From assembly GCA_964609135.1 (NCBI GenBank), contig CAZSQQ010000002.1:13349-77348 (forward strand): DNA of 64,000 nucleotides. The letters run 5' to 3'. Below, one piece after another: positions 8,046 to 53,639 of the stretch. A program made the position numbers and the translations under genes. The DNA comes from an uncultured Candidatus Saccharibacteria bacterium. Lineage in GTDB: Bacteria; Patescibacteriota; Minisyncoccia; UBA6257; Colwellbacteraceae. The notes beneath the pieces are model-generated. The model did no database searches. It was not told the origin of the DNA and was given only the letters and a program-made list of their open reading frames with translations. The number at the start of each line of letters is the position of its first letter. Positions within the stretch are counted from its first letter, which is position 1.

Positions 8046-9296
8046 ATGAAGATAATGGGAAAAAAGATAGTCATTTTGGGCGCCGGTTTCGGAGGACTTC
8101 ACGCGGCAATGGTATTGGGCAAGAAAATCGGCAGACGAAATGAGGTGATACTAATTGACCGAAACCCGTATCACACTTACACCCCTACGCTTTATGAAAT
8201 CGCCACCACCTCCAAAGAGGTGGCTAATTTGGTTGATTTAAAATCAATTGTCACCTTCCCGATTGCTGAAATCCTGAAGGGTATGCCCGTCGGATTCACA
8301 GAGGCCGAGATCAAAGAGCTTGATTTGAAAGGGGGCGATATTCACCTCGACGATGGCCAAAAGTTAAAGTACGACTTTCTCATCATCGCTCTTGGAGCAG
8401 AAACAAATTACTTCAACATCCCTGGGCTTAAAGAAAATTCTCTCGATCTGAAAAGTTTCAACGAGGCTGTTAAAATCCGCGACACTGTCTGGAATTTGAT
8501 AGACGGCGGAAATAAAAATGTAAAAATATTAATCGGGGGAGGGGGTTCAACCGGAGTTGAACTTGCTGGAGAACTACAGCAATGGCTCTGTGAATTCGAT
8601 AAAGGACACAAGAAGTGTTTTGCGGAGGTAAAAATAATCGAAGCCGGGCCGAGTATTCTAAACGGCTTTCCCAAAACAGTTGTCGAAAAGGTGATGAGAC
8701 GTCTTGCACGCCTTGCGGTTGAAGTAATTACAAACGAGGCAATTAAGGAAGTTGCCAAAAAAGAAGTTTTATTAAATAGCGGCAAGAAAATTCCTTTTGA
8801 CGTTTTAATATGGGCGGGAGGAGTAAAAGCCAATTCCCTAACGAGTGGCCTACCGCTAAAAATAGAAAGGCGGGGCAGGGCGGAAGTCATGCCGGGGATG
8901 ATATGTCTCCCTGAATCACCAGAGCTGAAACTCTTCGGAAAAATTTACGGATTGGGAGACGTAACGTGCTTTTATAAGAACGACGGTACACCGATACCCA
9001 GTGTTGCGAGAGCAGCTATTTCTCAAGCCGATATTGTTGCCAAGAACATAATTTGCGATATCTACGGGAAGGAGCCGGTGAAATATAAGCCGACAGAATA
9101 TCCTTATATAATCCCGGTTGGCGGCAAATACGCGGTTGCGAAAGTAGGGCCAATAATTATCTCCGGATTCTCGGCTTGGATCCTTAAAGGATTTGTTGAG
9201 TTAAATTACTTGCTATCAATAATGCCGCCAGGCCGAGCTGTAAAAACTTGGCTTAGGGGTCTAAAAATCTTTATCCAAAACGATCGTTTGGGATAA
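8046..9296 (+). CDS. ndh: type II NADH dehydrogenase (NDH-2) / FAD-dependent pyridine nucleotide-disulfide oxidoreductase
   Basis: Two Rossmann GxGxxG motifs (IVILGAGFGGLHAA; ILIGGGGSTGVELAGEL), about 417 aa, NDH-2 layout; real start is an internal Met of the 503-aa track ORF (8046 or 8055). Confidence 0.8.
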   Translation: MKIMGKKIVILGAGFGGLHAAMVLGKKIGRRNEVILIDRNPYHTYTPTLYEIATTSKEVANLVDLKSIVTFPIAEILKGMPVGFTEAEIKELDLKGGDIHLDDGQKLKYDFLIIALGAETNYFNIPGLKENSLDLKSFNEAVKIRDTVWNLIDGGNKNVKILIGGGGSTGVELAGELQQWLCEFDKGHKKCFAEVKIIEAGPSILNGFPKTVVEKVMRRLARLAVEVITNEAIKEVAKKEVLLNSGKKIPFDVLIWAGGVKANSLTSGLPLKIERRGRAEVMPGMICLPESPELKLFGKIYGLGDVTCFYKNDGTPIPSVARAAISQADIVAKNIICDIYGKEPVKYKPTEYPYIIPVGGKYAVAKVGPIIISGFSAWILKGFVELNYLLSIMPPGRAVKTWLRGLKIFIQNDRLG

Positions 9297-9297
9297 C

Positions 9298-9780
9298 CTA
9301 TCCCCAAAACTTGTGGAGCTTCGGATACTGCCTGCAAATCGGAAGATTGGCGCACCAGTTTTCCAACCCCCAATATCTTCCTGCTCTCACGGCGGCGAAG
9401 AACAGAAGAACTGCGGCGTAAACGATGTGTTCATCAACCAGAAATCCGTGCTCAACTTTCGGAAATTCCAAAACGGGGAAATAGTAAAGCAACATCAAAC
9501 CTACGCCCAGAACAGAGCTTAATCTAACCCCTATTCCCAGAATCAAAGATATTCCCAGAAGAGTCAGTCCCCATTCGTTTACAAAATTCACCCAGCCGAT
9601 ATTGGCGTCGGAGGCAAACCACTGGAATAATTCGGGGAAGGTTTTAGCGGTTGTGAGATATCCTTTGGCTGTCCAAGCGGGATCCATAATTTTGGTAATG
9701 CCGGCATAGAACATAAGCCAACCGACAGCGACTCTCGCGATAGTCAAAAACAGTGCCTCGTTTTTAGTCAAATTAGTCAT
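9298..9780 (-). CDS. DoxX family membrane protein
   Basis: 4-TM DoxX-like profile (ARVAVGWLMFYAGITKI...); start at Met9, 2 nt after upstream stop. Confidence 0.65.
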   Translation of the reverse strand: MTNLTKNEALFLTIARVAVGWLMFYAGITKIMDPAWTAKGYLTTAKTFPELFQWFASDANIGWVNFVNEWGLTLLGISLILGIGVRLSSVLGVGLMLLYYFPVLEFPKVEHGFLVDEHIVYAAVLLFFAAVRAGRYWGLENWCANLPICRQYPKLHKFWG

Positions 9781-10342
9781 TTTTATCCTTATTTTCTTTA
9801 TCAATCGACCGCCATAGTTTAACTATGGCCAAGAAAAGTAATATCAAGAGGCCAATCCAAAAAAGTGTGCCTATCAGGCCAATAATCCCCCACGAGTTGT
9901 AGGTCCACGGATTACTCCAGTTACCCATCATACCTCCTAACATTATCTGCATCATGGGCATAAAACCTCCGGCTTGGGAGGAAAAGGCAGCCGAGGTATC
10001 ACAACCGCTTAATCTTTTACCCATCACGAGATGTGCCTGCTCTTCGCCCGACTCACCCATCATACTAATCATCATGGCGTTCATCACGGCATGCGAATTC
10101 CCCATCATAGTCCCCATAAAATATTCACCCAAAGCTTCGAAATCGCCGTCGTTTAAGTCGCTGCAATTAAGCTGTTTTGATTGAAGCTTTTCCCACAGCG
10201 TCTTACCCTCTGCCTCCTCTTTTTTGGTATGTTCTTCAATTTCCGGGGTAACACTCTTAAACATCGTCTGTCCTTGAGCTTGAGAAACGAGACCGGGTGC
10301 GAAGAGAAGGGCACTAATGAACACTATGAATATCTTTGTCAT
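9773..10342 (-). CDS. secreted Met-rich protein with C-terminal TM anchor (possible Cu(I)-binding Mets motifs)
   Basis: Signal peptide, then MGTMMGNSHAVMNAMMISMMGE and GGFMPMMQIMLGGMMGNW clusters, then C-terminal TM. Confidence 0.5.
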   Translation of the reverse strand: MTKIFIVFISALLFAPGLVSQAQGQTMFKSVTPEIEEHTKKEEAEGKTLWEKLQSKQLNCSDLNDGDFEALGEYFMGTMMGNSHAVMNAMMISMMGESGEEQAHLVMGKRLSGCDTSAAFSSQAGGFMPMMQIMLGGMMGNWSNPWTYNSWGIIGLIGTLFWIGLLILLFLAIVKLWRSIDKENKDKND

Positions 10343-10382
10343 TGTATAAGTTGGTACATCTTATTAAAAATTATACTCCTCT

Positions 10383-10763
10383 TTATGGTTGTAGGGGACA
10401 ACCGCTTTCTTCCGAAAGCTTCTCCAGCCCCTGTTCGCCGGCTAATCTCCGACCATCCGGGAAAAGCCAAGAGGGGTAACTCTCAACTTTATTGGCCAGA
10501 CATCTCTTCGGTTCTTCGGTACACTCCACATAATTCACAAATCGGAAAGAATCACCAAAAGCCGCTTTCTCATTTTGACAATGGGGACACCAATAAGCGC
10601 CGTACATTACGGCTCCGCTATTCGAAAGACACTCGGCAAAACCGTCGTACTTTCCTTGAGCAACCTTCGGAGAAAAGACGTTGGCCATCAAGGTTATGGC
10701 AATGACTGCCGAGAGAAAGATAAAAATAAAAATTGTAATTTTCTTAACCATGCTCAACAACAA
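10383..10763 (-). CDS. membrane-anchored thioredoxin-fold protein with WCPHC active site
   Basis: N-terminal signal anchor followed by ...GAYWCPHCQNEK... (CxxC thioredoxin/DsbA-type motif). Confidence 0.65.
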   Translation of the reverse strand: MLLSMVKKITIFIFIFLSAVIAITLMANVFSPKVAQGKYDGFAECLSNSGAVMYGAYWCPHCQNEKAAFGDSFRFVNYVECTEEPKRCLANKVESYPSWLFPDGRRLAGEQGLEKLSEESGCPLQP

Positions 10764-11215
10764 TTTTCCATCTCCTCCTTTATTTTCTTAACTGACTCGT
10801 TCTTGCTCGAGGCCACCTTCTCTCGCCTGCCGAAAAGAAAATAGCCGAACCCCAATAAAAGCAGAGCTTCGAGAATCAAAACCAACGGACTTAAATTAAT
10901 CAAAAATAAATAAGAGATGGTTAATCCGATAAAAATAACCGGCAATTTCCATCTCCAAATACTTTGACGGGCAAATACATATTTCTTTTCTCCTTGAAAA
11001 GCAATACCAACAACCGTCCCTCCTATAAGCAATCCCAAGGGCAAAAGATACGCTTCTTCATCGAAGATTCCCAAAACGATGAGCAAAGAAATTATAAGCC
11101 AGGTGGAACTTACCCCCAGACAAATTGGACAAATTTCTAACCGCAGCGTCCGATTTAGAAACCGGGCACTAACGGTAATCAAGAACGCCAAACTTATCGC
11201 CACCAACATAGCCAT
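10754..11215 (-). CDS. small 4-TM membrane protein with CPIC (CxxC) motif at edge of TM1; possible DsbB/VKOR-like thiol oxidoreductase partner
   Basis: Start taken at ATG 11215, sharing its A with ccdA stop (TGATG); family assignment tentative. Confidence 0.45.
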   Translation of the reverse strand: MAMLVAISLAFLITVSARFLNRTLRLEICPICLGVSSTWLIISLLIVLGIFDEEAYLLPLGLLIGGTVVGIAFQGEKKYVFARQSIWRWKLPVIFIGLTISYLFLINLSPLVLILEALLLLGFGYFLFGRREKVASSKNESVKKIKEEMENCC

Positions 11216-11991
11216 CAGACAAAGTAAATTATAGACCCTAATCCGACCATGAGGATACCGGCAATTAATCTTTCGGTTTTCCGCTCCTCTCTCTGCCACA
11301 CTTGAACCTTCTCCAGAACTTTCTTATCCGATGCCACAAAGAGGATAACAAGAAGCGGCAGGACGAAAATAATGTTGTAGAAGATGAGGTATGCTAATCC
11401 GTTTAAGAACGTCGCCTGGTCATGCAACAATCCCAGAACCGCGAGGTATGGACCCCCGGTGCAGGGGAATTCACAGATACCGACAAATGCGCCAAGCAAA
11501 AAAGCTGTGGGCAAACTGGCTTGGTCAATCATTACCGCCATCTTATTGTGAGCTGAATGCGGAATATGTAACTTAATCGGGAAGTTCGGAACCAGGACTT
11601 CCAGGGCATTAATGATTCCGAAACCAATAAGCATTATGGCGCCGACCTTGGCCATAAAATGAGGAATGCTGAAAATGTGCAGAACCTGGAGAATCCCGAG
11701 ACCGATTGCGAGATAAGCCAGGAAAATCCCCAAGATGTAGAGAAGACCGATTCGAAGAATATTGGAACGAAGCCGGCCCAGGCTAAAGAGAAAAGCAATC
11801 GTTAGGAGCAGTATGGAGAAAGCGCAGGGATTAATGCTGTCAACCATAGCCGAGGCGACAACGAGGGGCAGGAGCAGCTTACCGCCAGAAGAAATATCCC
11901 ATAGCAACTGGGCGGAAGACATTGAACCGAAGTAAAAGGCTCCGCCCAATAAGACTGCCGCGAATAGAATCAGCCAATAAATCTTTTTCAT
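11215..11991 (-). CDS. ccdA: cytochrome c biogenesis CcdA / DsbD-beta-domain thiol-disulfide transporter
   Basis: 6 TM with the two conserved Cys motifs SINPCA and CEFPCTGGPYL typical of the DsbD_2/CcdA family. Confidence 0.75.
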   Translation of the reverse strand: MKKIYWLILFAAVLLGGAFYFGSMSSAQLLWDISSGGKLLLPLVVASAMVDSINPCAFSILLLTIAFLFSLGRLRSNILRIGLLYILGIFLAYLAIGLGILQVLHIFSIPHFMAKVGAIMLIGFGIINALEVLVPNFPIKLHIPHSAHNKMAVMIDQASLPTAFLLGAFVGICEFPCTGGPYLAVLGLLHDQATFLNGLAYLIFYNIIFVLPLLVILFVASDKKVLEKVQVWQREERKTERLIAGILMVGLGSIIYFV

Positions 11992-11995
11992 CTAT

Positions 11996-12511
11996 TTAGG
12001 GAGTAACGTTGACTTTGAAGCTTAAGACAACGGGCTCGGAACCGCCGAAATCCAGATAAATTTCCCGTTCTATGAATCCCACGCCAGCCGGACCGTGAGC
12101 AGCCGGATCGAAAACCGCACGGACATTAAGAACCTGGTTGGGTTCAATTTTCAGATTGGCGGTCTTCCATAATCCTGAATCCCCGTGCCCGGGCATACCA
12201 AAAGGTCCGACCTCTCTACCGCCCTCCAAACTCAAGAAAGCGGTGGTACACATACAGGAAGTGGTCGCTTCTCCCACCCGCAGGGTTTCCGAAGAAATAT
12301 TCTTAACCGCGTAGTTATAATCTACCAATCCTTTCCTCATTGAGACAGAGCCGAAATCATAACCCGTTTCCTTAATCTCGATCTGGGCGAGATTAAAACT
12401 GGAACTGGCGCCTGATGTCGAGCTTGACTGAATCTTCCCTTGGAGACTCCATACGGATAGACCGGCTATCACCAAAACAAAAAGTGCAATTATTTTAGTT
12501 GAATTTTTCAT
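11996..12511 (-). CDS. exported DUF1573-like protein (conserved SCMCT motif)
   Basis: Signal peptide; YDFGSV...N-x-S...SCMCT matches the DUF1573 core pattern (FDFG...SCGCT). Confidence 0.5.
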   Translation of the reverse strand: MKNSTKIIALFVLVIAGLSVWSLQGKIQSSSTSGASSSFNLAQIEIKETGYDFGSVSMRKGLVDYNYAVKNISSETLRVGEATTSCMCTTAFLSLEGGREVGPFGMPGHGDSGLWKTANLKIEPNQVLNVRAVFDPAAHGPAGVGFIEREIYLDFGGSEPVVLSFKVNVTP

Positions 12512-12597
12512 GTTAGTTGAATTTAACTTTTAATTAGACGCAAAGAAATAGAGCACCAGAAAGTACCAGGGGGCCGCAACCAAAGAAAGCCGCGGCT

Positions 12598-12957
12598 CTA
12601 TCTCAAATTAGGACTATTGAGGTGAGAAACCAGCCAGCTCAATTCTTTTTCAGATAATCGACGGGGTCGGGCATCAACAAAACTAAAATTTCTGTCTAGA
12701 GTTGTATTTAACGTGCTAATCGAATTGGCGAGAAAAAGAATTCCAAGATAAACAAGGGGCAGGACAAGAGACAATAAACCGTTCAAAGACGCGAGATGTC
12801 CCAAAATATCCTCCAAACCGCCGGCCAAACCGCACAGTCCGCCGCTTCCCAAGGGGCAGAAATGACTGCCCACAGTATGAATAGCGAAAACGAAGAATAC
12901 GCTCGCAATCAAGCTCAGAATTAAAATAACACTAAGAGTTTTTTGGTGGAGAACCAT
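12598..12957 (-). CDS. small membrane protein with HFCPLGSGGLCG Cys pair
   Basis: 119-aa ORF, 2-3 TM, co-oriented between DUF1573 gene and copA. Confidence 0.4.
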   Translation of the reverse strand: MVLHQKTLSVILILSLIASVFFVFAIHTVGSHFCPLGSGGLCGLAGGLEDILGHLASLNGLLSLVLPLVYLGILFLANSISTLNTTLDRNFSFVDARPRRLSEKELSWLVSHLNSPNLR

Positions 12958-12990
12958 TTCCCTTAAATTAACATGGAATAACTTAGAAGT

Positions 12991-15183
12991 CTACTGGCGC
13001 AGGCTGGGTTCGACGCGTTTAAGAAGAACTGCATTGGTAGCCACGATGATGGATGAAGCCGACATGAGAAGCGCGGAAATTTCCGGCCGAAGCGACCAGT
13101 GAAGCGAGCTATAGAAAACTCCTGCGGCAATGGGAATGGCAAGCATGTTGTAAATCGCAGCCCAGAAAAGATTCTGTTTCATCTTGACAACGGTTGCTCT
13201 ACTCAAGCGAAGCGCAGCCACAATGTCGTAGGGGTCCGACTTCATAAGAACAATGTTCCCCGTCTCTATGGCCACATCTGTTCCCGCACCAATCGCAATA
13301 CCGATATCCGCTTGGGCAAGCGCCGGTGCATCGTTAATTCCGTCACCGACCATCGCGACAAACTTGCCTTCGTCCTGTAATTGCTTCACATACTTGGCTT
13401 TGTCTCCAGGAAGCACTTGCGCGAAGTAGCGATTGATACCAAGGTCTTTGGCTATCGCACCCGCCACTCGTTCATGGTCGCCGGTAATCATAACCACTTC
13501 CAAACCCATGGACTGCAATACTGAAATCGTCTTTTTCGCCGACGGCCGCAAAGTATCAGCCACACCAATTACTCCCGCAACACTGTTATCAATTGCTACA
13601 ATGCTCAAGGTGTTTCCAGCCTCGAGCAGATGGTCAATCTCCGAGCGAAGCGGTGAGAGATCGATTTTGTGCTGCTGCATGAGACGTTCCGTGCCGGCAA
13701 TAACCGACTGGCCGCCTACGACCGCGCGAACACCCTCTCCGCTAACCGCCTCAAATTTTTCTATCCTCTGTTTTACTTCAATGCCGCGCTTTTTAGCTTC
13801 TTCAATAATAGAAAAGCTGATTGGGTGATTGGAACCAGTTTCAACGGCTGCCGATACGGCAATAAGTTCACGCACGCTATTCCCTGGACGAACGATTATT
13901 TCGGTAACTTGCGGCTTGCCCATGGTCAAAGTACCTGTTTTATCAAGAACAATGGCCGTAAGCCTCGAAGTATTTTCAAGCGTTGCTGCGTCTTTTATAA
14001 GAATGTTGTGTTTGGCGCCGATACCGGTTCCTACGGCAACGGCTGTGGGAGTCGCAAGGCCAAGCGCGTCAGGGCAGGCAATGACAACCGTCGAAACCGC
14101 AAAGGTAAGGGCCGTAAGGAGTCCAGCTCCAGCGCCCAAATACCAACTTAGAAATGCTGCGATCCCGGAACCAATGGCGACAACGACCAGCCAACTCGCC
14201 GCTTTGTCGGCTATGCGCTGGCCGGGCGCTTTAGAATTTTGAGCCGTCTCAACAAGTTTGATGATTTGCGCAAGAACGGTTTCCGACCCAACCTGGGTAG
14301 CTTTAAACTTGACGGTTCCCGTCTGGTTAACTGAACCGCCGACAACTTTATCACCAACTTTTTTAATAACCGGAATTGATTCTCCGGTCACCAGCGATTC
14401 ATCAATTGAAGTTTCCCCTTCCGTAATCGCGCCGTCTACCGGCGCTTTGTCGCCGGGCCGAAGGACAACGATATCGTTGTGAACAATTTCGGCGCTGGGT
14501 ATGACAGTCTCCTTACCACCACGGATAACCTTGGCTTGCGGCGGCACCAGGTCAAAAAGGGCGCGAAGCGCGTCAGAAGTCCCGCGACGCGAACGCATCT
14601 CCATCCAGTGACCAAATAGAACAAACGTTACTAAAAGCGCTGCGGCTTCATAAAAAGTTTCGCTTCCTCCTATTACGGTAAGTAGCACGCTAAAAAGATA
14701 GGCGGCCAGCACTCCGGTAGCGATCAAGACCGCCATATTAAGTTTCTTGGCTTTAAGAGAATAATAGGTGCCGGTAATGAAAATGGAGCCCGTAAAGAAG
14801 ACTATCGGCGTTGTGAGAACAAAAAGCAGCCAATTTACCGGAATGGGAGTTGGAAGATCGAGCTTAAAAAAATTAAGGCCCAGTGGAGAATAAAGAACGA
14901 TAGGGATTGAGAGCAGGAAAGACACTAAAAATCTGCGACGCATGTCGACTTCCATCTGCTCGGCAATTGCCGGATTTGTCATAGCGGCCTCGTGATCAGC
15001 GTGGCTCCCGCCTACGCCACGGCTATGGCGGGCAGGCATTTTCTGCATATTGCGGCTGGCGTGAGAGTCAGCCTTTCGGGGTATCAAATCCATACCGCAG
15101 GCCGGGCACCGGCCGGGTTCGCTCTTCCGAACTTGCGGGTGCATCGGGCAAGCATAGATTTTTTGCGAGGAGCTTTGACCCAC
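12991..15183 (-). CDS. copA: copper-translocating P1B-type ATPase
   Basis: N-terminal CPMHPQV...CPACGM metal-binding ribbon, 8 TM, TGES-type actuator, DKTGTLT phosphorylation site, [10 protein letters not shown] hinge; TM6 motif reads [11 protein letters not shown] (CPD, not CPC). Confidence 0.9.
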
Positions 15184-15215
15184 CGATTATGTTTTGATCT
15201 CTACTGTGCGACCTT

Positions 15216-16160
15216 TTATACTCCGCAACTGCCACCCGACCGCACTTCAGGCACAGTAATTTGACTTAGAATTTTCTGGTATCCAGAGGCGCTGGAAAAA
15301 TCATATCCCAGGAGTTCTTTGGGATCGGCTTTTTCCCATCCAACCCCCTTTGATTGAAGATGTCTTGCAATATTCAAATAAGTATCCGGGAACCAGTATG
15401 CATTAACCCGCAGGGCCACTCTGTACATTTCATTTTCCGATATCCCCTGTGATGCCATAAGTTCAAGGAGTCCCAACATCGCCATGCCGTGATTGCAGTC
15501 CGGGAAGTAGGTTGAGTTGTTGCAACATGGACGATAGATGTTCTTTGCGACCCGGGCGACAAGGTCCTGCTCATCTCTCGTTAAAACGATTAAGGGATGC
15601 CCGCTATAATGATCCATTGTTTCCCCTCTCGAGAGCGTCCATCCGCCGGTCGAGGCAAAGTTCTCCGCCCCTCCATATCGCGCATCCATCATCGGCCCTT
15701 CTTCCAAAATAGAACTCTTAGTGCCTAATCCCAACGCCCACAAAAGATTTAAAATGAACCCGGAATTTTCAGACGTAATTTTGAGGTTGCCGTTATCAGA
15801 TCCATATAAAAGTTGCTTGGCTTCATCGGTTAGGCCCCCGCGACTCGCGTAGATCGACTCAAATTTTTCCTTATCGATTACTCCCGCGCTTATCGTTCTC
15901 ACGCCGAGATCACCCCAACGAACCGGCAGGACAATCCCCGCTCGCGGCAACACTTTATCCTTGAGAGCATCAGCAATATGTTGCTCATTTGATAATGTTG
16001 ATAAGGCTTGAGTCTTCGCCCGATCCCGTTGGAACTCCGGTCCCGTTACGTAAATAAAAACTCCAACGAGAGCAATCACGAAAACAAGAATGTTTATATT
16101 TGAAAGCGTATACTCCCCTTGTTTGCCTTTGCTCTCCATGTCCGGTTTTGTATTATTCAT
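15216..16160 (-). CDS. hypothetical membrane-anchored protein of the cop operon (Cys/His/Met cluster RPCCNNSTYFPDCNHGMAM)
   Basis: About 314 aa from Met19 (16160) to avoid overlap with csoR; one N-terminal TM; no family recognised. Confidence 0.45.
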   Translation of the reverse strand: MNNTKPDMESKGKQGEYTLSNINILVFVIALVGVFIYVTGPEFQRDRAKTQALSTLSNEQHIADALKDKVLPRAGIVLPVRWGDLGVRTISAGVIDKEKFESIYASRGGLTDEAKQLLYGSDNGNLKITSENSGFILNLLWALGLGTKSSILEEGPMMDARYGGAENFASTGGWTLSRGETMDHYSGHPLIVLTRDEQDLVARVAKNIYRPCCNNSTYFPDCNHGMAMLGLLELMASQGISENEMYRVALRVNAYWFPDTYLNIARHLQSKGVGWEKADPKELLGYDFSSASGYQKILSQITVPEVRSGGSCGV

Positions 16161-16188
16161 AACATATTTATTGCAAGCCAACTTCGTT

Positions 16189-16452
16189 TCATTTAGAAAG
16201 TTTATAGATAGCAATAATCTCTTTGACTGCCTTTTTTGATTTTTGTCCCTTTATTTGTTCTACGGCATGTGTGGCAATATGATTCTCAAAAATAAAATCT
16301 TCAAAACTAGAGAGGGCTTTCTTAATCGCCAACGACTGAATAATAATATCGGGGCAGTAGCGGTCGTCTTCAACCATTTTTTGCAGACCGTGGATCTGGC
16401 CGCCAATTATTTTGAGGCGGCGCAGGGCTCGTCCTTGAGTTTTTGTAACCAT
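16189..16452 (-). CDS. csoR: CsoR/RcnR-family metal-sensing transcriptional repressor
   Basis: ALRRLKIIGGQIHGLQKMVEDDRYCPDIIIQ...H...H matches the CsoR fingerprint (RLxRIEGQ, conserved Cys and His ligands); 88 aa from Met14. Confidence 0.75.
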   Translation of the reverse strand: MVTKTQGRALRRLKIIGGQIHGLQKMVEDDRYCPDIIIQSLAIKKALSSFEDFIFENHIATHAVEQIKGQKSKKAVKEIIAIYKLSK

Positions 16453-16462
16453 TGCCTTAAAT

Positions 16463-16480
16463 AATACCCCTAGGGGGTAT
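16463..16480. promoter_or_regulatory. putative CsoR operator: 18-bp perfect palindrome ATACCCCCTAGGGGGTAT immediately upstream of csoR
   Basis: Perfect dyad; closely resembles the known GC-tract CsoR operators of form TACCC-N-GGGTA (B. subtilis copZA). Confidence 0.55.
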
Positions 16481-16492
16481 TCTGTCAACAAC

Positions 16493-16786
16493 CTAAAAGT
16501 AACGTATCAGGACCTTCCCTAAAACATCTTTTTTCGTTATCCAGCCAAAACTTCGGCTGTCGGTGCTCTCCCCTTCGTTGTCACCGGAAACAAAGTACTC
16601 ATCTCCCCGAACTTCTTTGATTCTTTTCAAAATCAAACGCCCATCACGAGGATCTTTTAAAACCACGACTTCGTCCGCCTTGGGTCCTCTAAATTTATAA
16701 ATCAGATTGCTAACCAAAAGTTTGCCGCCTTCTCTAAAAACCGGTTCCATGCTCCGTCCGGAAACAATAAAACGGGAAAGAAACAT
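16493..16786 (-). CDS. sodX: S26-family NiSOD maturation peptidase (SodX-like)
   Basis: Short signal-peptidase-like protein with SGRSMEPVF Ser box and ...LKRIKEVRGD... Lys box; TAATG overlap with sodN. Confidence 0.6.
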   Translation of the reverse strand: MFLSRFIVSGRSMEPVFREGGKLLVSNLIYKFRGPKADEVVVLKDPRDGRLILKRIKEVRGDEYFVSGDNEGESTDSRSFGWITKKDVLGKVLIRYF

Positions 16787-17214
16787 TATTTCTTAGTCCT
16801 TTCAAATATCTCTCCGATCTCGGCAACTTTTTGTCTTAACTCCTTGGCCGATTCGAGGTTTATCTCTCGCTTATTTTTAGAACAGAGCTTGGTCGCAACC
16901 CAAATCTTCTCGTGAAGGTCGGGAAACTGAATCAAATGTTCCGGTTTAAAATAATCCGTCCAGAGAATTAATATTTCTTTTTTGCAAAGTTCGGCGTGTT
17001 CTTCTTTAACTCTGACCATCCGAGCAGCTGAATTCTCATAAACGAGCATCTCTCCTTTATTGAAAGAGGTTGGTGGTGTAAGTCCAGTCAAAAGAATAAC
17101 CATCTTTTCGACCGTCTCCGCGGCCATAGCCGAGGGCACAGCCGAATAAATCCCGCAGGGAATATCGCAGTGAGCGTAAACTACTTTTAGCTCGCCGAAG
17201 ATTCGCATTGGCAT
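16786..17214 (-). CDS. sodN: nickel superoxide dismutase precursor
   Basis: 14-aa propeptide then HCDIPCGIY, the Ni-hook (HCDLPCGVY consensus) of NiSOD; size and helical remainder fit. Confidence 0.8.
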   Translation of the reverse strand: MPMRIFGELKVVYAHCDIPCGIYSAVPSAMAAETVEKMVILLTGLTPPTSFNKGEMLVYENSAARMVRVKEEHAELCKKEILILWTDYFKPEHLIQFPDLHEKIWVATKLCSKNKREINLESAKELRQKVAEIGEIFERTKK

Positions 17215-17739
17215 TTACTGAACAACGACTCGGCCAGTAAACTTTGGATTCAATTTATCAACGTAGTCCCAAATGCCTGAGCGTTCGAAGGTTACGCGCA
17301 GATTTTCGCCAAGCTTTAGACCGGCGCAAGAATCAAACTTGCTCCCGCAAGGACCTCTTTCCGGATATTGATTGGAGGCGACTGATGCCACCCAGTGGGG
17401 AGCCTTATCTCTGTTGGTCCACAGAACTGCCGTGCCTTTGACGATATTTACCTCTGCGGGGCTGAAGCCGGCGGTAGTAATATCAATAACCATGTTGGCC
17501 TGTTTCTCGATAGGAACCATTACCTGGGTAATAGTCCCGTCTTGGGGAACATAAACTTCCGGCGGTTTTTGGACAGGGACCGGAGCGGCTTCTTTTTTGC
17601 CGGTAAGCGAATCTTGAAACTGCTTTAACGGAGTACCGGTTGGCCAATTAACAAGCGTGAAGACGCCAACTACAACGACCGCTAAAACCAGAGCGGCGGC
17701 CACTTTACTGGCTTTTTCGTTATCCATTTCCATAATCAT
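17215..17739 (-). CDS. secreted protein with C-terminal cupredoxin-like domain (paralog A)
   Basis: Signal anchor; GFSPAEVNIVKGTAVLWTNRD..H...C-x6-C...G.W.Y....LNP...G.VVV shared with next gene. Confidence 0.5.
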   Translation of the reverse strand: MIMEMDNEKASKVAAALVLAVVVVGVFTLVNWPTGTPLKQFQDSLTGKKEAAPVPVQKPPEVYVPQDGTITQVMVPIEKQANMVIDITTAGFSPAEVNIVKGTAVLWTNRDKAPHWVASVASNQYPERGPCGSKFDSCAGLKLGENLRVTFERSGIWDYVDKLNPKFTGRVVVQ

Positions 17740-17749
17740 ACCATCTTCC

Positions 17750-18619
17750 TTACTCTACGACTACTGTCCCTGCTTTAGAAGGATTTAAATGATCGTGGTA
17801 TTTCCATGAACCCGGGAAATTAAAAACGAATGTGAAGCTCTCGCCTTTATTTAGCCCCTTACAGGCATCGAAGCTTGAATCAATGCAACCGCCTTTCTCG
17901 GGATAAATTGAGTGAGTTGGGTGAATAGCTGATGCCGGCCAGCTCAAGGCTGAACTTTGATTAGTCCAGCGAACAGTATCTCCCTTCTTAATCTTTATCT
18001 CTTTGGGAGAAAAACCGTTATCGGTTATCAAAACTTCCTTCAATAGCGACTGGTTATTGGACTGAACTGGAGTCGGTTTTTCTTTCAAACTTCCGACAGC
18101 TTCGTCTAAAATCTTATTACCCACGGACTCTAGCTTGTCTCTTATCACGGCACTCTTATCTTTCAAACCTTCGAAAAGTCGGCGATGACGAGAGACTCTG
18201 TCGGCTAACTGCTGCAACAACTTATCAACGTTGGGGTTATTGGAAGTTTGCTTAAGCGATTCCAGTCGCGCGCTCAACCTCGAAACATTACTATTGTAAT
18301 TATTGAGGGCTTTCTCTATGGCCTTGGTATTGCTGGGCTCTAAGTCAATAACTCTCTTAATCTCGGCGGCTCGCTCGCCCGCGACGGTCAATTCGTATTC
18401 AGCTTTGGAAAAAGGATCAAAGATAAAGAAAAGTTTTGTGGCTCTGCCCAGCTCCTTTATAAAATAGAAGGGATTGGTGGGTAGAATCCCCGGGTTGCCC
18501 AAATCTTCATCTCCGCTTTGAACTGCTGGAGCGGGAGAGGTGGTTTGTGCGATGGTTATTGGTAACGACGAAAACGCGAGAGATAGAGCGAGCGACAAAA
18601 CGATTAATGTTTTTTGCAT
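17750..18619 (-). CDS. secreted protein: N-terminal helical domain plus C-terminal cupredoxin-like domain (paralog B)
   Basis: Signal peptide; C-terminus GFSPKEIKIKKGDTVRWTNQ...H.TH...C-x7-C...GSWKYHDHLNP..GTVVVE. Confidence 0.5.
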   Translation of the reverse strand: MQKTLIVLSLALSLAFSSLPITIAQTTSPAPAVQSGDEDLGNPGILPTNPFYFIKELGRATKLFFIFDPFSKAEYELTVAGERAAEIKRVIDLEPSNTKAIEKALNNYNSNVSRLSARLESLKQTSNNPNVDKLLQQLADRVSRHRRLFEGLKDKSAVIRDKLESVGNKILDEAVGSLKEKPTPVQSNNQSLLKEVLITDNGFSPKEIKIKKGDTVRWTNQSSALSWPASAIHPTHSIYPEKGGCIDSSFDACKGLNKGESFTFVFNFPGSWKYHDHLNPSKAGTVVVE

Positions 18620-48314: not shown

Positions 48315-49703
48315 CTACGGGCTCCAGTTAACTATGACATCGTCAACTACCGGAAGTCCGCTGGAAGAGGAAGCAACCTGCATCACCTTATAACTCACCG
48401 TCCCACAGGTAGAGGTGTTGGAGCAGTTGAAGCTTATCCAGCCCAAAGCGTCATTCCAGCCCCAGCCGGAGAAGTCCCCGGTCGTGGTATTCAACAACAC
48501 CCTGTAATCCGACGTAGCGCAGGTATTGCCGATAACGCTATTGTTGCAATTGAAGCTTATCCAGCCAACGGCATCGTTCCAGCCCCAGCCGGCAAGATTG
48601 CCGGCGCCGTCATTGGTAACGTTGAAGTTGCTGGTACTGCAGATATTGCCATTGGGGGAAGTGGCGCAGTCAAAGGCTATGTAAGAACCGGCGAAGCTCT
48701 CCCAGACGGCATAACCCTGAATGAGACTGGGGGTTATGTTAACGGTCCCCGGCGAGAAGAAGTTCATCCAGCCGAAGGAATCGTTCCAGGCCCATTTGTT
48801 TACGGAGTCGATGCCGGTCGAGGGAAGAGTATAGATGCCATCTAAGAAAACCTTATATCTATAGTAGCGCTTATTGTTGTGATAAATGCCCGCGATCTGA
48901 ATGGGGCTATTGGGACCGCTCGGGCTGTAATAAGTTGCCGATGATCCGTCCGACCCCAAAAAGGCGCCGTCACCGGCAGTCTTACTGCCTCCCCAGCCGA
49001 CACCCGCAGCACAGCCTGGAGCGTCGGTTGCGCCATTGGAACAATTGGCAGTTGCCAGTTGAAACTTAACCGCTGAATCGGTGGGCAGTGAACCCTGCCA
49101 GAGAAAGCTGTTAAAAGAAACTCCGTTAGAGTAGCCGGTGTCAAAAGTGCTGGAGATTAAGTTCCCGGCAACAGGCCCGGAGATATTTTGGCTCACCTTA
49201 TAACTCACCGTCCCACAGGTAGAGGTGTTGGAGCAGTTGAAGCTTATCCAGCCCAAAGCGTCATTCCAGCCCCAGCCGGAGAAGTCCCCGGTCGTGGTAT
49301 TCAACAACACCCTGTAATCCGACGTAGCGCAGGTATTGCCGATAACGCTATTGTTGCAATTGAAGCTTATCCAGCCAACGGCATCGTTCCAGCCCCAGCC
49401 GGCAAGATTGCCGGCGCCGTCATTGGTAACGTTGAAGTTGCTGGTACTGCAGATATTGCCATTGGGGGAAGTGGCGCAGTCAAAGGCTATGTAAGAACCG
49501 GCGAAGCTCTCCCAGACGGCATAACCCTGAATGAGACTGGGGGTTATGTTAACGGTCCCCGGCGAGAAGAAGTTCATCCAGCCGAAGGAATCGTTCCAGG
49601 CCCATTTGTTGGTGGAATTAATGTTGGTGGCGGCAGAAGCAATTTCCGGAAAACCAAATGACAAAACCACAATGACCAATAAGATTGAATTAAAAATTTT
49701 CAT
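48315..49703 (-). CDS. secreted Trp/Cys-rich repeat protein (W.WND..GW..F modules) carrying a duplicated 139-aa block
   Basis: Signal peptide MKIFNSILLVIVVLSFGFPEIASA; repeats GWGWNDAVGWISFNC... Confidence 0.55.
   Translation of the reverse strand: MKIFNSILLVIVVLSFGFPEIASAATNINSTNKWAWNDSFGWMNFFSPGTVNITPSLIQGYAVWESFAGSYIAFDCATSPNGNICSTSNFNVTNDGAGNLAGWGWNDAVGWISFNCNNSVIGNTCATSDYRVLLNTTTGDFSGWGWNDALGWISFNCSNTSTCGTVSYKVSQNISGPVAGNLISSTFDTGYSNGVSFNSFLWQGSLPTDSAVKFQLATANCSNGATDAPGCAAGVGWGGSKTAGDGAFLGSDGSSATYYSPSGPNSPIQIAGIYHNNKRYYRYKVFLDGIYTLPSTGIDSVNKWAWNDSFGWMNFFSPGTVNITPSLIQGYAVWESFAGSYIAFDCATSPNGNICSTSNFNVTNDGAGNLAGWGWNDAVGWISFNCNNSVIGNTCATSDYRVLLNTTTGDFSGWGWNDALGWISFNCSNTSTCGTVSYKVMQVASSSSGLPVVDDVIVNWSP
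48383..48800. repeat. 418-bp direct repeat, copy 1 (100% identical to 49193..49610)
   Basis: Line-by-line comparison, offset 810 bp. Confidence 0.9.
49193..49610. repeat. 418-bp direct repeat, copy 2
   Basis: See copy 1. Confidence 0.9.
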
Positions 49704-49726
49704 AGTTCAATGCGATTCACTACAAG
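49704..49726 (-). repeat. conserved junction element copy B (TGA-CTTGTAGTGAATCGCATTGAACT-ATG)
   Basis: Fills the 23-nt gap; frame VVNRIEL* with TGA overlapping ATG. Confidence 0.55.
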
Positions 49727-51049
49727 TCATGGCACTTGAATTTGGATAGACCCGGGGGTGGTTGACGCATCGATCTTGGTCTGCGAAGAATAACCGGTGT
49801 TAGGACTTGTAACCGGCCCTTCAGCGCCAGACCCTCCATTCCAGTTGCTGAATTGGGTAATTTCGTTTTTGGAGCGAGTCAAAAATTCAGAAGCTTGGAT
49901 TTGCGGAGACCCCCCGAACTGACTCCACGAAACCGTAGCCGTGACTTTCTGCGTTGAGGGATCTTCCGTGCCGCCAGTCGCTACGATTGATCCGCCGGAA
50001 TCACGATTAACGTTTTCAACCGACAAATAGCGGGTGAAGGGACGGGAATTATAGGTTTGAGTGACCTCGGCCGCCGAGACCGCCCGCTTGTAAATTTTAA
50101 CGTCGTCTATCCTGTGACTCGCGGACGTTCCATCGGCGTCCCCCATCCGAACAGATCCGGCAGTATAAAGCGTTTGGCTCGCGAGAGCCGAGGTTGTCGT
50201 ACATTGAACTCCGTCCAAATAAACCTTAACAGTTGTGCCGTCATAGGTTCCAAGCAAGTGATGCCAGGCATTTAAAGTAAACGACGGGGCGCAACCCGAG
50301 GCGTTAAATTGGCTCACTCCATTAAAAACTCCGAAGAGGGCGTTGCCGCCGGAATCGGCAAATAAATTCCAGCCGCCGGCGGCGGAGAAATTATTGGCCA
50401 CCAGATCATCAAAGTTAATATGACCGGTCAAATAAACCCAGGCCGAAACAGTTATGGCTGTGGTTGGGAACCCGCTCGGGGGCGCAATCGTGACATACTG
50501 GCCGGTCCCGCTAAGAGTTAGGCAGTCGCTCACGAAACAGGAGACTGTTCTCACGGGACTGCCAGTCAAAGTCCCGTTATTGCCAACACCGGAGGAATCA
50601 TAGGCATTGACCCCTGAAGCCTCATCCAGTTTCCATTGACCAACCAAGCCGTCCCTAATCTCATTTTCAGGAACCCCCTCTTTACCGGTTACGACGGTGA
50701 AATCGGCGCCCGTTGCATTCACAAGATAATAATTGGTAGAAGGGCCCTTGCTAGCCACATTATAAAGATTGGTCCAACCGGCCTGGGAAAAAGACCGCGC
50801 GTTATCAATGAGCTCTTGACTTAACAGATTGGCGGTTTGCACGGTGCGATTTTGGGCGTTGATGCGAAGCGTCAAAACTATCGCTCCCGCCGCCGAGCCG
50901 ATAATCAAGGTTCCAATGGCCACAGCCACGAGCACCTCAACCATTGATTGACCCCTTCGATGTGACTCACTCTTCGACTCTCGCTCAGAGTGCCCTGAGC
51001 TTGTCGAATGGGCAGGGCGGGCCCTCCTCTTGTTAAAACTGGTAGGCAT
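49727..51049 (-). CDS. pilin-like protein with LamG/concanavalin-like (LamG_3) domain; start ambiguous (51049 or 50944)
   Basis: ...RRG-QSMVEVLVAVAIGTLIIG hydrophobic helix with Glu+5, then LVGQWKLDEASGVNAYDSSGVGNNGTL LamG_3 signature. Confidence 0.55.
   Translation of the reverse strand: MPTSFNKRRARPAHSTSSGHSERESKSESHRRGQSMVEVLVAVAIGTLIIGSAAGAIVLTLRINAQNRTVQTANLLSQELIDNARSFSQAGWTNLYNVASKGPSTNYYLVNATGADFTVVTGKEGVPENEIRDGLVGQWKLDEASGVNAYDSSGVGNNGTLTGSPVRTVSCFVSDCLTLSGTGQYVTIAPPSGFPTTAITVSAWVYLTGHINFDDLVANNFSAAGGWNLFADSGGNALFGVFNGVSQFNASGCAPSFTLNAWHHLLGTYDGTTVKVYLDGVQCTTTSALASQTLYTAGSVRMGDADGTSASHRIDDVKIYKRAVSAAEVTQTYNSRPFTRYLSVENVNRDSGGSIVATGGTEDPSTQKVTATVSWSQFGGSPQIQASEFLTRSKNEITQFSNWNGGSGAEGPVTSPNTGYSSQTKIDASTTPGSIQIQVP
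50956..50972 (-). repeat. conserved junction element copy H (GTGAGTCACATCGAAGG), 10 nt upstream of internal ATG-GTT-GAG (MVEV...)
   Basis: 14/16 identical to copy F. Confidence 0.5.
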
Positions 51050-51078
51050 TTCCTATTTAAGTATAAATCACTTGTTGT

Positions 51079-51102
51079 GGTTCGACATAGCTCACCGTAA
51101 AT
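51079..51102 (-). repeat. conserved junction element copy A (TTTACGGTGAGCTATGTCGAACC) overlapping stop of 51092..52219
   Basis: Same orientation as other copies. Confidence 0.55.
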
Positions 51103-52219
51103 TGAAATTATAAAGAGTGGTGACCTCTGAAGCCGAGAGAGCCCGGCTATAGACACGAACTTCATCAATCGAACCGCTTAGAAATCCGGAAGCGAGGTCG
51201 CTTTTCACGGCCATAGTAAAGGGCGCGGCATTCACGTTAACCGAGGTTATGGTTGTGGCCGCGGAATTCTGAAGAGACCCGTCAATATAAATCCTTGCCG
51301 CCACCCCAGACTCAAAAACGCCAACCAAATGATGGAAAGTGCCGTCAGCTAAATTCGATGTGCCGGATACACTCACATTGGTTGTGCCATTAGAAACATA
51401 GAATTGTCCAAATCCAGAAGTTGCCGCAATATTCAGATTGTAAGCGATGGAGGCGTCTAGATCAGTATTGCGCTTGGCAATAATGTAAGCTAAAGCTGTC
51501 GAGGAAGTTTTAATCCAAGCGCTAAGAGAAAAGGAGCTCCCAACATTTAAACTTGAACCATTGCCGGCAGTGACATAATTAGAAGCGCCGTTAAAACTTA
51601 AACAGTTGCCGCTCTTGCAAGAGACTCCCGCAACCCATGTTGGCGCGGCGGCCGAAAAAGTTCCGCTATTGCCGTTCCCGGAATTGTCATTAGCCGTCGT
51701 GCCGGTATTTTCATCTAAATCCCAGTAGCCGACCAGGTCTTTTATGAGGTCGTAGTCAATCTTGCCGGACGTATTCACGGACACGAGACCAATCTGATTC
51801 GATAAAACCGATGAACTTATAACAATATTTGTACTTATATTCGGAATTCCGGTGGCCTTATCAAAAATCACGTCCCTGGAAGTATTGTTAACGGGATCGG
51901 TGAAATCAAGCTGGGGGCTAAGTGAAATTTTGGCGAGCACGGTGCCCGCCGCATAACTTGCGCCGCTCCAAATTTCGTAATAATCGTTGTCCGCTCCGGT
52001 CGGATTCCAGAATCTGATTCCCCACTGCAAACCGTTTTCTTGCGCCCTTGACCTCTGGGCGGTTTGCCTCACGTCGCTTAGAACCCTGAAAGTCATGCTG
52101 TTTAAAACCTGCTTTCCGCGAATGCCAAAATATCCCGGGGCCACAACGGCCGCGAGGAATGCCGTAACGGCCAAGACTATCAAGACTTCAACCAAAGTGA
52201 ACCCCTTCCTAGATGACAT
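51092..52219 (-). CDS. type IV pilin fused to LamG-like domain (class III signal peptide MSSRKG|FTLVEVL)
   Basis: Canonical prepilin cleavage motif G|FTLxE; LVGYWDLDENTGTTANDNSGNGNSGTF LamG_3 signature. Confidence 0.7.
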   Translation of the reverse strand: MSSRKGFTLVEVLIVLAVTAFLAAVVAPGYFGIRGKQVLNSMTFRVLSDVRQTAQRSRAQENGLQWGIRFWNPTGADNDYYEIWSGASYAAGTVLAKISLSPQLDFTDPVNNTSRDVIFDKATGIPNISTNIVISSSVLSNQIGLVSVNTSGKIDYDLIKDLVGYWDLDENTGTTANDNSGNGNSGTFSAAAPTWVAGVSCKSGNCLSFNGASNYVTAGNGSSLNVGSSFSLSAWIKTSSTALAYIIAKRNTDLDASIAYNLNIAATSGFGQFYVSNGTTNVSVSGTSNLADGTFHHLVGVFESGVAARIYIDGSLQNSAATTITSVNVNAAPFTMAVKSDLASGFLSGSIDEVRVYSRALSASEVTTLYNFNLR

Positions 52220-52280
52220 GCCGATTATATATAAATTTTTGAACCTTTGGGTGATAAAAATTTATCCATAGAATCGAGCA

Positions 52281-52384
52281 CCCCGCACCAGTTTACGCAA
52301 AATCGACCATTTTCATAGGGGGAAAGCGAATCTTGAGTTAGGTGACTTGGATGGGTCATGGTGTTCATAAAAACTGGTGCGGGG
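52281..52384 (-). promoter_or_regulatory. structured 5' leader of pilin gene: 14-bp long-range stem enclosing 76 nt
   Basis: Stem CCCCGCACCAGTTT (52281-52294) pairs with AAACTGGTGCGGGG (52371-52384); additional 8-bp hairpin at 52398-52417. Confidence 0.35.
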
Positions 52385-52426
52385 TAAGGTTTTGTTTCTC
52401 CGACGTAAGCGTCGGAGACAAAGCCC

Positions 52427-53638: not shown

Positions 53639-53639
53639 T

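Follow-up and report, generated by a model that had tools for sequence, protein, structure and literature searches.

A ten-gene locus occupies positions 9298-16491 on the minus strand of the 64-kb stretch of DNA analyzed here (the window). The locus has the anatomy of a single operon headed by a CsoR-family repressor and its operator, and we believe, with a little more confidence than doubt, that it is a copper-stress operon that couples metal efflux to an extracytoplasmic thiol relay. An envelope thiol-redox defense tied to copper homeostasis is a known kind of system; this one consists for the most part of protein families that lack annotation. The recurrence of these families in hundreds of related genomes points to a lineage-wide, uncharacterized handling of copper at the cell envelope. 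Four of the proteins, which have no family name, are called P2, P4, P7 and P9.

Operon anatomy and conservation

The features of the locus, all on the minus strand, are listed in the direction of transcription, with protein lengths in amino acids (aa) and transmembrane segments abbreviated TM.

16461-16488 (-): sigma-70-type promoter, TTGACA-16-TATTAT, matching 11/12 positions
16464-16480 (-): CsoR-type operator, 7-bp inverted repeat ATACCCC-CTA-GGGGTAT, overlapping the promoter
16189-16452 (-): CsoR-family repressor, 87 aa; PF02583, E 1e-21, 77.5 bits against a cutoff of 22.8
15216-16160 (-): P2, 314 aa; N-terminal membrane anchor, alpha/beta ectodomain, C-terminal helical bundle
12991-15183 (-): P1B-type heavy-metal ATPase, 730 aa, GTG start; TIGR01511, E 3e-169
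12598-12957 (-): P4, 119 aa, two TM; extracytoplasmic loop H-x5-H-x-C-x7-C...H, C-terminal WLxxHxNSP
11996-12511 (-): DUF1573 protein, 171 aa, anchored; PF07610, 32.9 bits against a gathering score of 26.1
11215-11991 (-): CcdA/DsbD-beta-like membrane thiol-disulfide transporter, 258 aa; Pro-Cys in TM1 (NPC56) and TM4 (FPC177)
10754-11215 (-): P7, 153 aa, polytopic membrane protein; start overlaps the ccdA stop (TGATG)
10383-10751 (-): membrane-anchored thioredoxin-fold protein, 122 aa from its ATG; WCPHC and a second Cys pair
9773-10342 (-): P9, 189 aa; signal peptide, Met/His-rich helical domain, C-terminal TM segment
9298-9780 (-): DoxX-family membrane protein, 160 aa; PF07681, 31.6 bits against a gathering score of 23.6
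9287-9308 (-): terminator-like hairpin and T-run at the DoxX stop, a consensus match only

All ten open reading frames (ORFs) are present at these positions, and the same ten genes are called in the Candidatus Colwellbacteria metagenome-assembled genome (MAG) GCA_016187165.1, whose contig JACPKH010000011.1 is the GenBank record matching this part of the window. The distances between consecutive genes, from 5' to 3', are 28, 32, 33, 86, 4, -1, 2, 40 and -8 nt, the last being the overlap of the DoxX start with the P9 stop. In a scan for promoter-like sites that covered 9-19 kb of the window (10 kb), the promoter ahead of the regulator was the best site, the matches within the operon were weaker (9/12) and no terminator-like site was seen between genes inside the operon. 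The inverted repeat occurs once in the window and ends 11 nt from the ATG of the regulator. Compact or overlapping junctions, an 11/12 promoter lying on a unique repeat, and a terminal hairpin together make up the anatomy of one operon; the ten-gene, CsoR-headed, minus-strand operon that an earlier note on this DNA had described is thus confirmed in its ORFs, promoter, operator and hairpin.

A scan for P2 loci, made with one genome per species, gave at least 597 confirmed loci. The best 80 of these, with titles that are almost all those of Patescibacteria MAGs, were compared with the window; their six-frame ORFs were searched with the window proteins and then clustered all-against-all. The 28 of these 80 loci that have at least 8 kb on either side of P2 are called complete.

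What is conserved among these loci is a same-strand cassette consisting of P4, DUF1573, CcdA, P7 or a second family that takes its slot (P7b), sometimes the thioredoxin, and P2, and this cassette adjoins a CsoR-family regulator and a P1B ATPase. In the complete loci, the strand of P2 also carries genes for a CcdA-like protein (26/28), an ATPase (25/28), P4 (22/28), DUF1573 (20/28), P7 or P7b (18/28) and the regulator (15/28). The thioredoxin is present in seven of the 28, DoxX or a DoxX-like protein in 12 and an AhpC/TSA redoxin in eight. The grouping is beyond chance, with the families co-occurring on one strand in dozens of independent genomes. Gene order varies among the genomes, P2 having moved to second place in the window, and the preservation of co-occurrence despite a shuffled order makes the case for a functional link stronger. 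The coupling of copper efflux to a CcdA-type thiol module, as the earlier note proposed, is conserved across Patescibacteria, as the counts for the ATPase and CcdA illustrate. The same note considered such an island unusual for a reduced genome; at least 597 species-level genomes carry P2, and contrary to that view the island is typical of such genomes. The literature yielded nothing specific on this cassette in the candidate phyla radiation (CPR).

Regulator, pump and envelope proteins

The regulator has the metal-ligand fingerprint x-C-H-H (RYC...NHIATH). When it is aligned to 2hh7, a His stands at the position of Cys65 in the Mycobacterium tuberculosis CsoR (NHIATH versus NHLETC), and so the canonical Cu(I) ligand set x-C-H-C (M. 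tuberculosis Cys36, His61 and Cys65) is not present; its best PDB matches are nevertheless CsoR proteins. The x-C-H-H set is that of the Thermus thermophilus CsoR type, a cluster that is treated as copper sensors (PMC8643695). The repeat in front of the gene has the sequence features of a CsoR-type operator, namely a G/C-tract inverted repeat that is flanked by AT and overlaps the promoter, and binding to it is predicted. In the related loci, 24 of the 38 occurrences of the motif TACCC-N-GGGTA lie upstream of a regulator start, mostly at 11-15 nt. The repressor and operator that had been called earlier therefore agree with PF02583 and with the promoter-overlapping repeat, the ligand set being x-C-H-H and not the canonical one. 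We also considered an RcnR-like Ni/Co sensor tied to the nickel superoxide dismutase (NiSOD) encoded next door. Like RcnR, the regulator has a His at position Z, but it lacks His3 and is matched best by CsoRs. As x-C-H-H is, in addition, an established set of copper sensors and the NiSOD gene is not conserved in the neighborhood, this reading was rejected.

In having a CsoR-family repressor, a G/C-tract operator on the promoter and a P1B ATPase under its control, the locus resembles the csoR-copZ-copA operons of Bacillus and T. thermophilus, and the x-C-H-H set is shared with the T. thermophilus CsoR (PMC8643695). It differs from them in having eight further envelope genes, an ATPase with an HMBD, a His-rich N-terminus and CPD in TM4, and no CopZ. 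A free CopZ-like ORF is absent from the window and was found in one of the 80 loci (L015), so a free CopZ chaperone was dropped as a component of the system.

The ATPase belongs to the heavy-metal subfamily (TIGR01525, 588.6 bits against a cutoff of 346) and contains DKTGT, TGES and GDGINDAP. Its N-terminus consists of an HMBD (PF19335; YACPMHP...CPACGM) and a His-rich stretch, TM4 carries CPD where CPC or CPH would be expected, TM5 carries NX6YNX4P and TM6 MSASSX5N. Thus, the TM5 and TM6 signatures are those of the P1B-1 (CopA-type) pumps, but the CPD and the HMBD in place of an HMA are not; nor does the protein fit the P1B-3 (CopB-type) pumps, which are marked by CPH, NX5GYNX4P, MSXST and a His-rich N-terminus, since it has CPD, IYN (no Gly), MSASS and an N-terminus that is only modestly His-rich. 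The earlier note had called it a copA-like Cu-ATPase; the copper P1B score and the TM5/TM6 signatures bear out a copper-type P1B ATPase, but it is a CPD variant and not a classical CPC CopA. The CPD is present in 120/120 of the best ATPase homologues (72-100% identity), which rules out a sequencing error. Those homologues that have a named source come almost entirely from Patescibacteria, one being labelled Ignavibacteriaceae. The CPD pumps of related loci form a tight, separate clade that is 69-76% identical to the window ATPase, whereas the CPH and CPC pumps of sister loci have at most 43% identity to it; the HMBD is common to the window ATPase and the CPH pumps. In sister loci, the cassette also lies beside a canonical C-H-C CsoR and CPC CopA, or beside CPH CopB-type pumps, and so the cassette is tied to copper irrespective of the ion moved by the CPD variant.

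The literature has one mention of a CPD motif, in three atypical, uncharacterized P1B-3-like ATPases of the Rhizobiales (PMC5552934). These share with the present pump the replacement of CPH/CPC by CPD, the YN(X)4P and a TM8 of the MSxSS type; they are described as His-poor and longer, unlike the Patescibacteria clade, which has the HMBD and a His-rich N-terminus and is large, as the 120/120 matches indicate. Two other observations concern the pump. In the related loci, x-C-H-H regulators pair with CPD and CPH pumps (HMBD N-terminus), and the regulators directly upstream of CPC pumps (HMA N-terminus) are mostly canonical C-H-C. In the GenBank MAG record, the ATPase begins 13 codons farther on (717 aa), which costs it the first Cys of YACPMHP (15145-15183); the GTG at 15183 (730 aa) keeps the HMBD whole and is the start used by another NCBI record (P0391), which lies on an 87-kb contig.

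The CcdA-like protein by itself scores above the gathering score of Pfam SfLAP (39.4 bits) and below that of DsbD_TM (21.7 against 27.1). However, a profile built from an alignment of 34 relatives and compared by hhalign with the transmembrane domain of E. coli DsbD gave a probability of 96% (E 3e-9), with both catalytic Pro-Cys aligned, and DsbD_TM matches 19 of the 34 relatives (best E 9e-13). C56, C173 and C177 are present in all 25 members of the main subfamily. The protein is therefore a member of the CcdA/DsbD-beta group by homology, as had been noted from the window sequence, and electron transfer by it is predicted. About nine of the fetched loci (L012, L018, L022:11817-12677, L029, L032, L033, L043 and L047-L049) have, together with P2, a divergent DsbD-superfamily protein with APCC in TM1 and SCCAP in TM4, which is 20-28% identical to the window CcdA. 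The main-type CcdA was not detected in these loci, except in L022, which has both types.

The WCPHC protein has a thioredoxin fold, although its Pfam thioredoxin score is below the gathering cutoff. Its alignment to Synechococcus VKOR (3kp9 and 4nv2; E 4e-19, residues 12-125) takes in TM5 and all of the thioredoxin-like domain, and this homology, to residues 164-280 of 3kp9, makes it a VKOR-associated type of thioredoxin-like domain. The thioredoxin-like domain of VKOR is a DsbA-like oxidizing partner, and CPHC contains the active-site dipeptide of DsbA. With this domain as its nearest solved relative, the protein is by similarity not a reductant of the ResA/CcmG type, and the earlier proposal of a thioredoxin-like reductase is not supported by its sequence. 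It is found in 15-17 of the 80 loci, always between CcdA/P7 and P2. There is no VKOR homologue in the window, where the thioredoxin gene follows ccdA and P7, unlike the situation in VKOR-thioredoxin fusions; VKOR adjoins the thioredoxin in L049 only (VKOR and then the WCPHC thioredoxin at L049:3265-4391).

The DUF1573 protein has an Ig-like (PapD/ASH-type) beta-sandwich fold. In an alignment built from a database search, C86-M87-C88, M106, H109 and H139 are invariant, and the C-x-C is replaced by U-G-C in selenoprotein relatives. These U-x-C relatives suggest that redox chemistry may take place at the C-x-C of DUF1573.

No sequence match to P2 was found in Pfam, NCBIfam or the PDB, and yet 7118 of the 8000 candidates scored are homologues; in the 120 best, the source names are all 'hypothetical protein', from Patescibacteria lineages or unclassified bacteria. 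R210, C212, C213, D221, C222, N223 and H224, in YRPCCxNSTxFPDCNHGMAM, are invariant, as is Cys312 in the C-terminal GGxCG tail. The only strong structural neighbor is the thiol-reductase domain CcmH, and P2 has a three-helix periplasmic domain like that of CcmH/NrfF (PF03918). The active site differs, with YRPCC in place of LRCxxC, a third Cys and a His, and P2 has in addition an alpha/beta domain of about 140 aa and the Cys tail. We did not retain P2 as a CcmH member by sequence, given the lack of a Pfam or PDB match, an hhalign E of 0.27 and unremarkable hidden Markov model (HMM) ranks, and kept the likeness in fold. Of the structure and remote-homology checks that the earlier note called for, those on P2 gave this likeness in fold; P4 and P7 have no Pfam or PDB match.

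The layout of the operon mirrors the thioreduction branch (CcdA-CcmG-CcmH) of cytochrome c maturation. It differs from that branch in the company it keeps, namely in lacking genes for heme handling and cytochromes c. CcmC, CcmE and CcmF homologues are absent from the window and the 80 loci (the whole genome was not searched), the window has no plausible CxxCH gene, its sole CxxCH hit being in an ORF antisense to the ATPase, and no Cox, Sco or Ccm family appears in the Pfam annotation that was retrieved, which covers the greater part of the window. We therefore rejected cytochrome c maturation as the client. By the earlier note, a cytochrome c maturation system elsewhere that explained CcdA and the thioredoxin-like protein would have refuted its reading; the lack of ccm and cytochrome c genes in the window and the 80 loci argues against such a system.

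P2 has also been found with VKOR. P0087 (470 aa) is a VKOR domain fused to P2, so that P2 replaces the thioredoxin-like domain of the VKOR-thioredoxin fusions. The neighborhoods of VKOR, P2 and the thioredoxin are a hint that P2 can couple to an oxidizing partner. L022 also encodes, on the opposite strand (13498-14991, -) and beside two CsoR-family genes, a divergent paralogue of P2 that is longer (about 498 aa; E 3e-62).

Neither P4 nor P7 nor P7b has a Pfam or PDB match. The P4 family is present in 57 of the 80 loci, typically directly upstream of DUF1573 as in the window, and the 58 members compared all have both Cys, while 97% have the His. The P4 of the window is a divergent member, missed by a single-sequence search, that the family HMM matches along its entire length (E 4e-6). 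Hydropathy gives P7 four to five hydrophobic stretches. Its TM3 contains GGxxxG, and two Cys motifs are invariant, a CPIC where TM2 is predicted to reach the cytoplasm and a Cys-Cys at the C-terminus; the positive-inside rule predicts a cytoplasmic location for both. A truncated VKOR or DsbB was considered for P7 and rejected, because P7 is without loop cysteines and without a match in Pfam or the PDB. The P7 family occurs in 23 of the 80 loci, directly after CcdA wherever both genes were identified, and in 22 other loci the slot is taken by P7b, a soluble protein that also ends in Cys-Cys. P7b is helical, with about 166 aa, an invariant EGETWC...KHLL and a C-terminal ...VDCCDE (for example, L004:4239-4736 and L020:9106-9603); in L035, only a 57-aa remnant ending in HCCDE is left in this slot.

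Proposed mechanism and its rivals

In the scheme that follows, we infer induction by copper, the direction of electron flow, its terminal acceptor and Cu binding by P2 and DUF1573. The repressor would bind Cu(I) and leave the operator, whereupon all ten genes would be transcribed. The CPD-variant ATPase would export Cu(I) from the cytoplasm, and the cassette of P4, DUF1573, CcdA, P7, the thioredoxin and P2 would equip the outer face of the membrane with cysteines that are redox-active or serve as thiolate ligands. Like its counterparts DsbD and CcdA in other systems, CcdA would pass reducing equivalents through the membrane. Likely acceptors would be DUF1573 through its C-x-C, the DsbA/PDI-like WCPHC protein and, above all, P2, with its CcmH-like helical domain, its invariant CC...C...H cluster and a Cys on a flexible C-terminal tail. 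The reduced ectoproteins might then reshuffle or reduce copper-catalyzed disulfides on surface proteins, hold newly exported Cu(I), or do both. We propose a thiol relay because CcdA is homologous to DsbD-beta, every member of the cassette has invariant Cys, the C-x-C of DUF1573 has U-x-C counterparts in selenoproteins, P2 has CcmH as its one strong structural neighbor and AhpC/TSA redoxins recur in the loci. The link to copper is drawn from the PF02583 regulator with its x-C-H-H set, the TIGR01511 score and the P1B-1 signatures of TM5 and TM6.

There is a precedent for such a system. In Scs, the DsbD-family protein ScsB feeds the thioredoxin-fold proteins ScsC and ScsD; the system is induced by copper and protects against it, ScsC binds Cu(I) very tightly, and envelope peroxiredoxins can be Scs clients (PMC10907172, PMC8900818, PMC3322552). 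In its layout the present operon is comparable to the ScsABCD of Salmonella, Proteus and Caulobacter, with a transporter, a thioredoxin fold and a promoter that, to judge from the operator, would be copper-regulated. It is unlike ScsABCD in having a minimal, CcdA-sized transporter that lacks the N-terminal alpha domains of ScsB, a thioredoxin that is optional and no ScsA or ScsC orthologue. Moreover, P2, P4, DUF1573 and P7/P7b have no Scs counterparts, the host is a CPR bacterium of the monoderm type and the module lies within a CsoR-ATPase operon. The proposed repair of copper-catalyzed disulfides is a point of likeness to the DsbD-DsbC systems of Gram-negative bacteria.

A bolder form of this proposal, which we would put forward only tentatively, is that P2, P4, P7/P7b and DUF1573 form with CcdA an unrecognized envelope copper machine that is specific to Patescibacteria. 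It would consist of a rebuilt CcmH-fold ectoprotein that CcdA feeds from new cytoplasmic donors with Cys-Cys tails, and it would go together with a new CPD class of ATPase and an x-C-H-H CsoR. The rebuilt fold, with its vicinal Cys-Cys, third Cys, His and Cys tail, might bind Cu(I) or carry out Cu-dependent thiol-redox chemistry at the surface of hosts without cytochromes c.

Patescibacteria, most of them uncultured and all with tiny genomes, account for a large part of bacterial diversity. With genomes this small, gene sets that are kept almost universally are likely to be important to them. The cassette is kept beside a copper pump in hundreds of genomes, and yet four of its families lack any annotation. 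If the copper-stress operon is what we believe it to be, it would show how epibiotic bacteria with an exposed cell wall shield their surface thiols from copper, and it would give functions to several large families of 'hypothetical' proteins, P2 alone having more than 7000 members. It would also be a natural case of the thioreduction toolkit of cytochrome c maturation (CcdA, a thioredoxin fold and a CcmH fold) operating without cytochromes. In addition, a large, uncharacterized CPD class of P1B ATPases, paired with a regulator type, has been flagged.

Several points weigh against a copper-induced, reducing relay. The whole analysis is based on MAG sequence. The WCPHC protein is closest to an oxidizing partner, as judged both from the VKOR domain and from the DsbA dipeptide. 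VKOR is fused to P2 in P0087 and in another locus stands directly before P2, without DUF1573-CcdA (L028:9253-9816); P2 may therefore be oxidized rather than reduced in some genomes. No specific resemblance of DUF1573 to DsbD-alpha, the Ig-like N-terminal domain, was found. The likeness of P2 to CcmH is structural only (hhalign E 0.27, Foldseek E 4.2), and the HMM of its C-domain ranks E. coli NrfF 343rd and CcmH 669th of 10,155 targets. With the Asp in its CPD, the ATPase might formally transport an ion other than Cu(I). Finally, the commonest gene order elsewhere has the cassette upstream of the operator-regulator-ATPase unit, and so copper control of the cassette is directly implied only in the window and about eight loci.

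Some of these points have a home in an oxidative module. The WCPHC protein and P2 would then act in the manner of DsbA, as oxidants or substrates that make or exchange disulfides on surface proteins, or that turn bound Cu(I) into Cu(II), which is less toxic. A quinone reductase of the VKOR type would be the exit for electrons, and CcdA would supply a counter-flow for isomerization only. We consider both the module and this electron path unlikely. The alignment of the WCPHC protein with the Synechococcus VKOR domain and its CPHC dipeptide favor them, as do the topology of the P0087 fusion, which matches that of the VKOR-thioredoxin fusions, and the presence of VKOR in five of the 80 loci, once before P2 in place of DUF1573-CcdA (L028) and once by the thioredoxin (L049). 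However, the window has no VKOR homologue, a CcdA-like protein accompanies P2 in 26 of the 28 complete loci as against VKOR in five of 80, and the fusion is known from a single contig of 1.7 kb. The thioredoxin, being present in only seven of the complete loci, is not the core of the system. A quite different use of the same cysteines, to which we give a rather low probability, would be a ligand-exchange relay by analogy with MerP-MerT-MerA, in which thiolates move a soft metal such as Cu(I), Ag(I) or Hg(II) across the membrane. The suggested path, which we hold to be equally improbable, would run from the outer Cys of P4, DUF1573 and P2 to the two membrane-embedded Cys of the CcdA-like protein and on to the CPIC and Cys-Cys of P7 or to P7b, whose cysteines might also do for the ATPase what the missing CopZ would. 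The shared Cys-Cys ends of P7 and P7b in the slot after CcdA, the predicted cytoplasmic location of the P7 cysteines, the near absence of CopZ from the loci and the resemblance of the invariant Cys, Met and His of DUF1573 and P2 to Cu(I) ligands are what one would expect of such a relay. The LysE/DsbD superfamily, moreover, includes metal-ion transporters. Yet the import of copper under a derepressed CsoR regulon is physiologically implausible, the cysteines of the CcdA-like protein line up with those that transfer electrons in DsbD, the topology is a prediction and the metal binding is putative.

Two other explanations were considered. That the genes serve to mature a cuproprotein or a c-type cytochrome whose gene lies elsewhere, along the lines of CcdA-ResA/CcmG-CcmH or TlpA-Sco and with a loose tie to copper efflux, strikes us as very improbable. 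CcdA, a thioredoxin fold and a CcmH-like fold are indeed the parts of the thioreduction branch, and two cupredoxin-like proteins (weak Pfam matches) are encoded just upstream. Against this stand the lack of CcmC, CcmE and CcmF homologues in the window and the 80 loci and of a plausible CxxCH gene in the window, the replacement of LRCxxC by RPCC and the fact that the cassette accompanies the ATPase and the regulator from genome to genome, when the cupredoxin-like genes and NiSOD are not conserved neighbors. To our knowledge, Patescibacteria generally lack respiratory chains, which also counts against it. An adjacency of unrelated genes by chance, or a set of separate and functionally unlinked transcripts, would be compatible with the 86-nt gap between P4 and DUF1573 and with the many other genomes in which the cassette is upstream of the regulator-ATPase unit and not behind the operator. 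This was already disfavored by the same-strand co-occurrence in 20-26 of the 28 complete loci despite the shuffled order, and the overlapping or 2-4-nt junctions, together with inner promoter-like matches of only 9/12 and no intergenic terminator-like site, leave it hardly any probability at all.

Peripheral genes and surroundings

P9 and DoxX are peripheral to the conserved core and are genome-specific accessories. A close relative of P9 is found in three of the 80 P2 loci and close relatives of DoxX in 10, with a second DoxX-like family in 14. The earlier note had DoxX and the Met-motif protein complete the island; both are in the operon, but neither is widely conserved with it. P9 has no Pfam or NCBIfam match. 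Its invariant Cys are C60 and C114, its family comprises 630 representative clusters at E<=1e-3 (305 at E<=1e-10), and a SHOCT domain is present in 12 of 30 relatives. Four proteins had been reported as having no assignable family, and P2, P4, P7 and P9 do lack Pfam and NCBIfam matches, but three of them belong to well-populated, conserved families.

DoxX-family proteins occur in the copper-stress bufferin/gig operons and in the mycobacterial DoxX-SodA-SseA complex, and the present operon resembles both in having such a membrane protein in a copper- or oxidative-stress setting (PMC11626156). It differs from the bufferin/gig operons in having no MNIO enzyme and no precursor of a ribosomally synthesized and post-translationally modified peptide, and DoxX accompanies the cassette in a minority of genomes.

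Other same-strand genes recur within 8 kb of P2. They encode an anchored AhpC/TSA redoxin (15 loci), DUF3105 (14 loci, often directly after P2), DUF5676 two-TM proteins (15 and 12 loci), a DUF5643-like protein with GHHREG (17 loci), a membrane protein with SCCAH (16 loci) and small Met-rich SHOCT proteins (13 loci).

Directly upstream of the operon and on the same strand (16493-18619, -) are genes for NiSOD, an S26 peptidase and two paralogous anchored proteins. The NiSOD has the Ni-hook HCDIPCGIY behind a 14-residue leader, and the S26 peptidase is the maturation peptidase of this adjoining NiSOD. The two paralogues have weak cupredoxin-like C-terminal domains (weak Pfam matches), and one of them also has DUF5667. 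The physical link to NiSOD that was pointed out previously is peculiar to this genome, with NiSOD in none of the 80 loci and the S26 peptidase in one. The S26 stop and the -35 box of the csoR promoter lie 4 nt apart, and so read-through into the operon is possible.

At the other end, a flavoprotein resembling type-II NADH dehydrogenases (Pyr_redox_2; 8055-9296, +) is convergent with the end of the operon and has relatives near P2 in three of the 80 loci; it might act as a quinone reductase or have nothing to do with the operon.

The ten-gene locus lies well within the part of the window that corresponds to JACPKH010000011.1. Farther on, the window passes the end of this contig (about 49400) into the reversed JACPKH010000027.1 (about 49470-62618), and there is no run of N at 49360-49500, around the junction. 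Since the junction is crossed without N, the window comes from a longer assembly of the same population.

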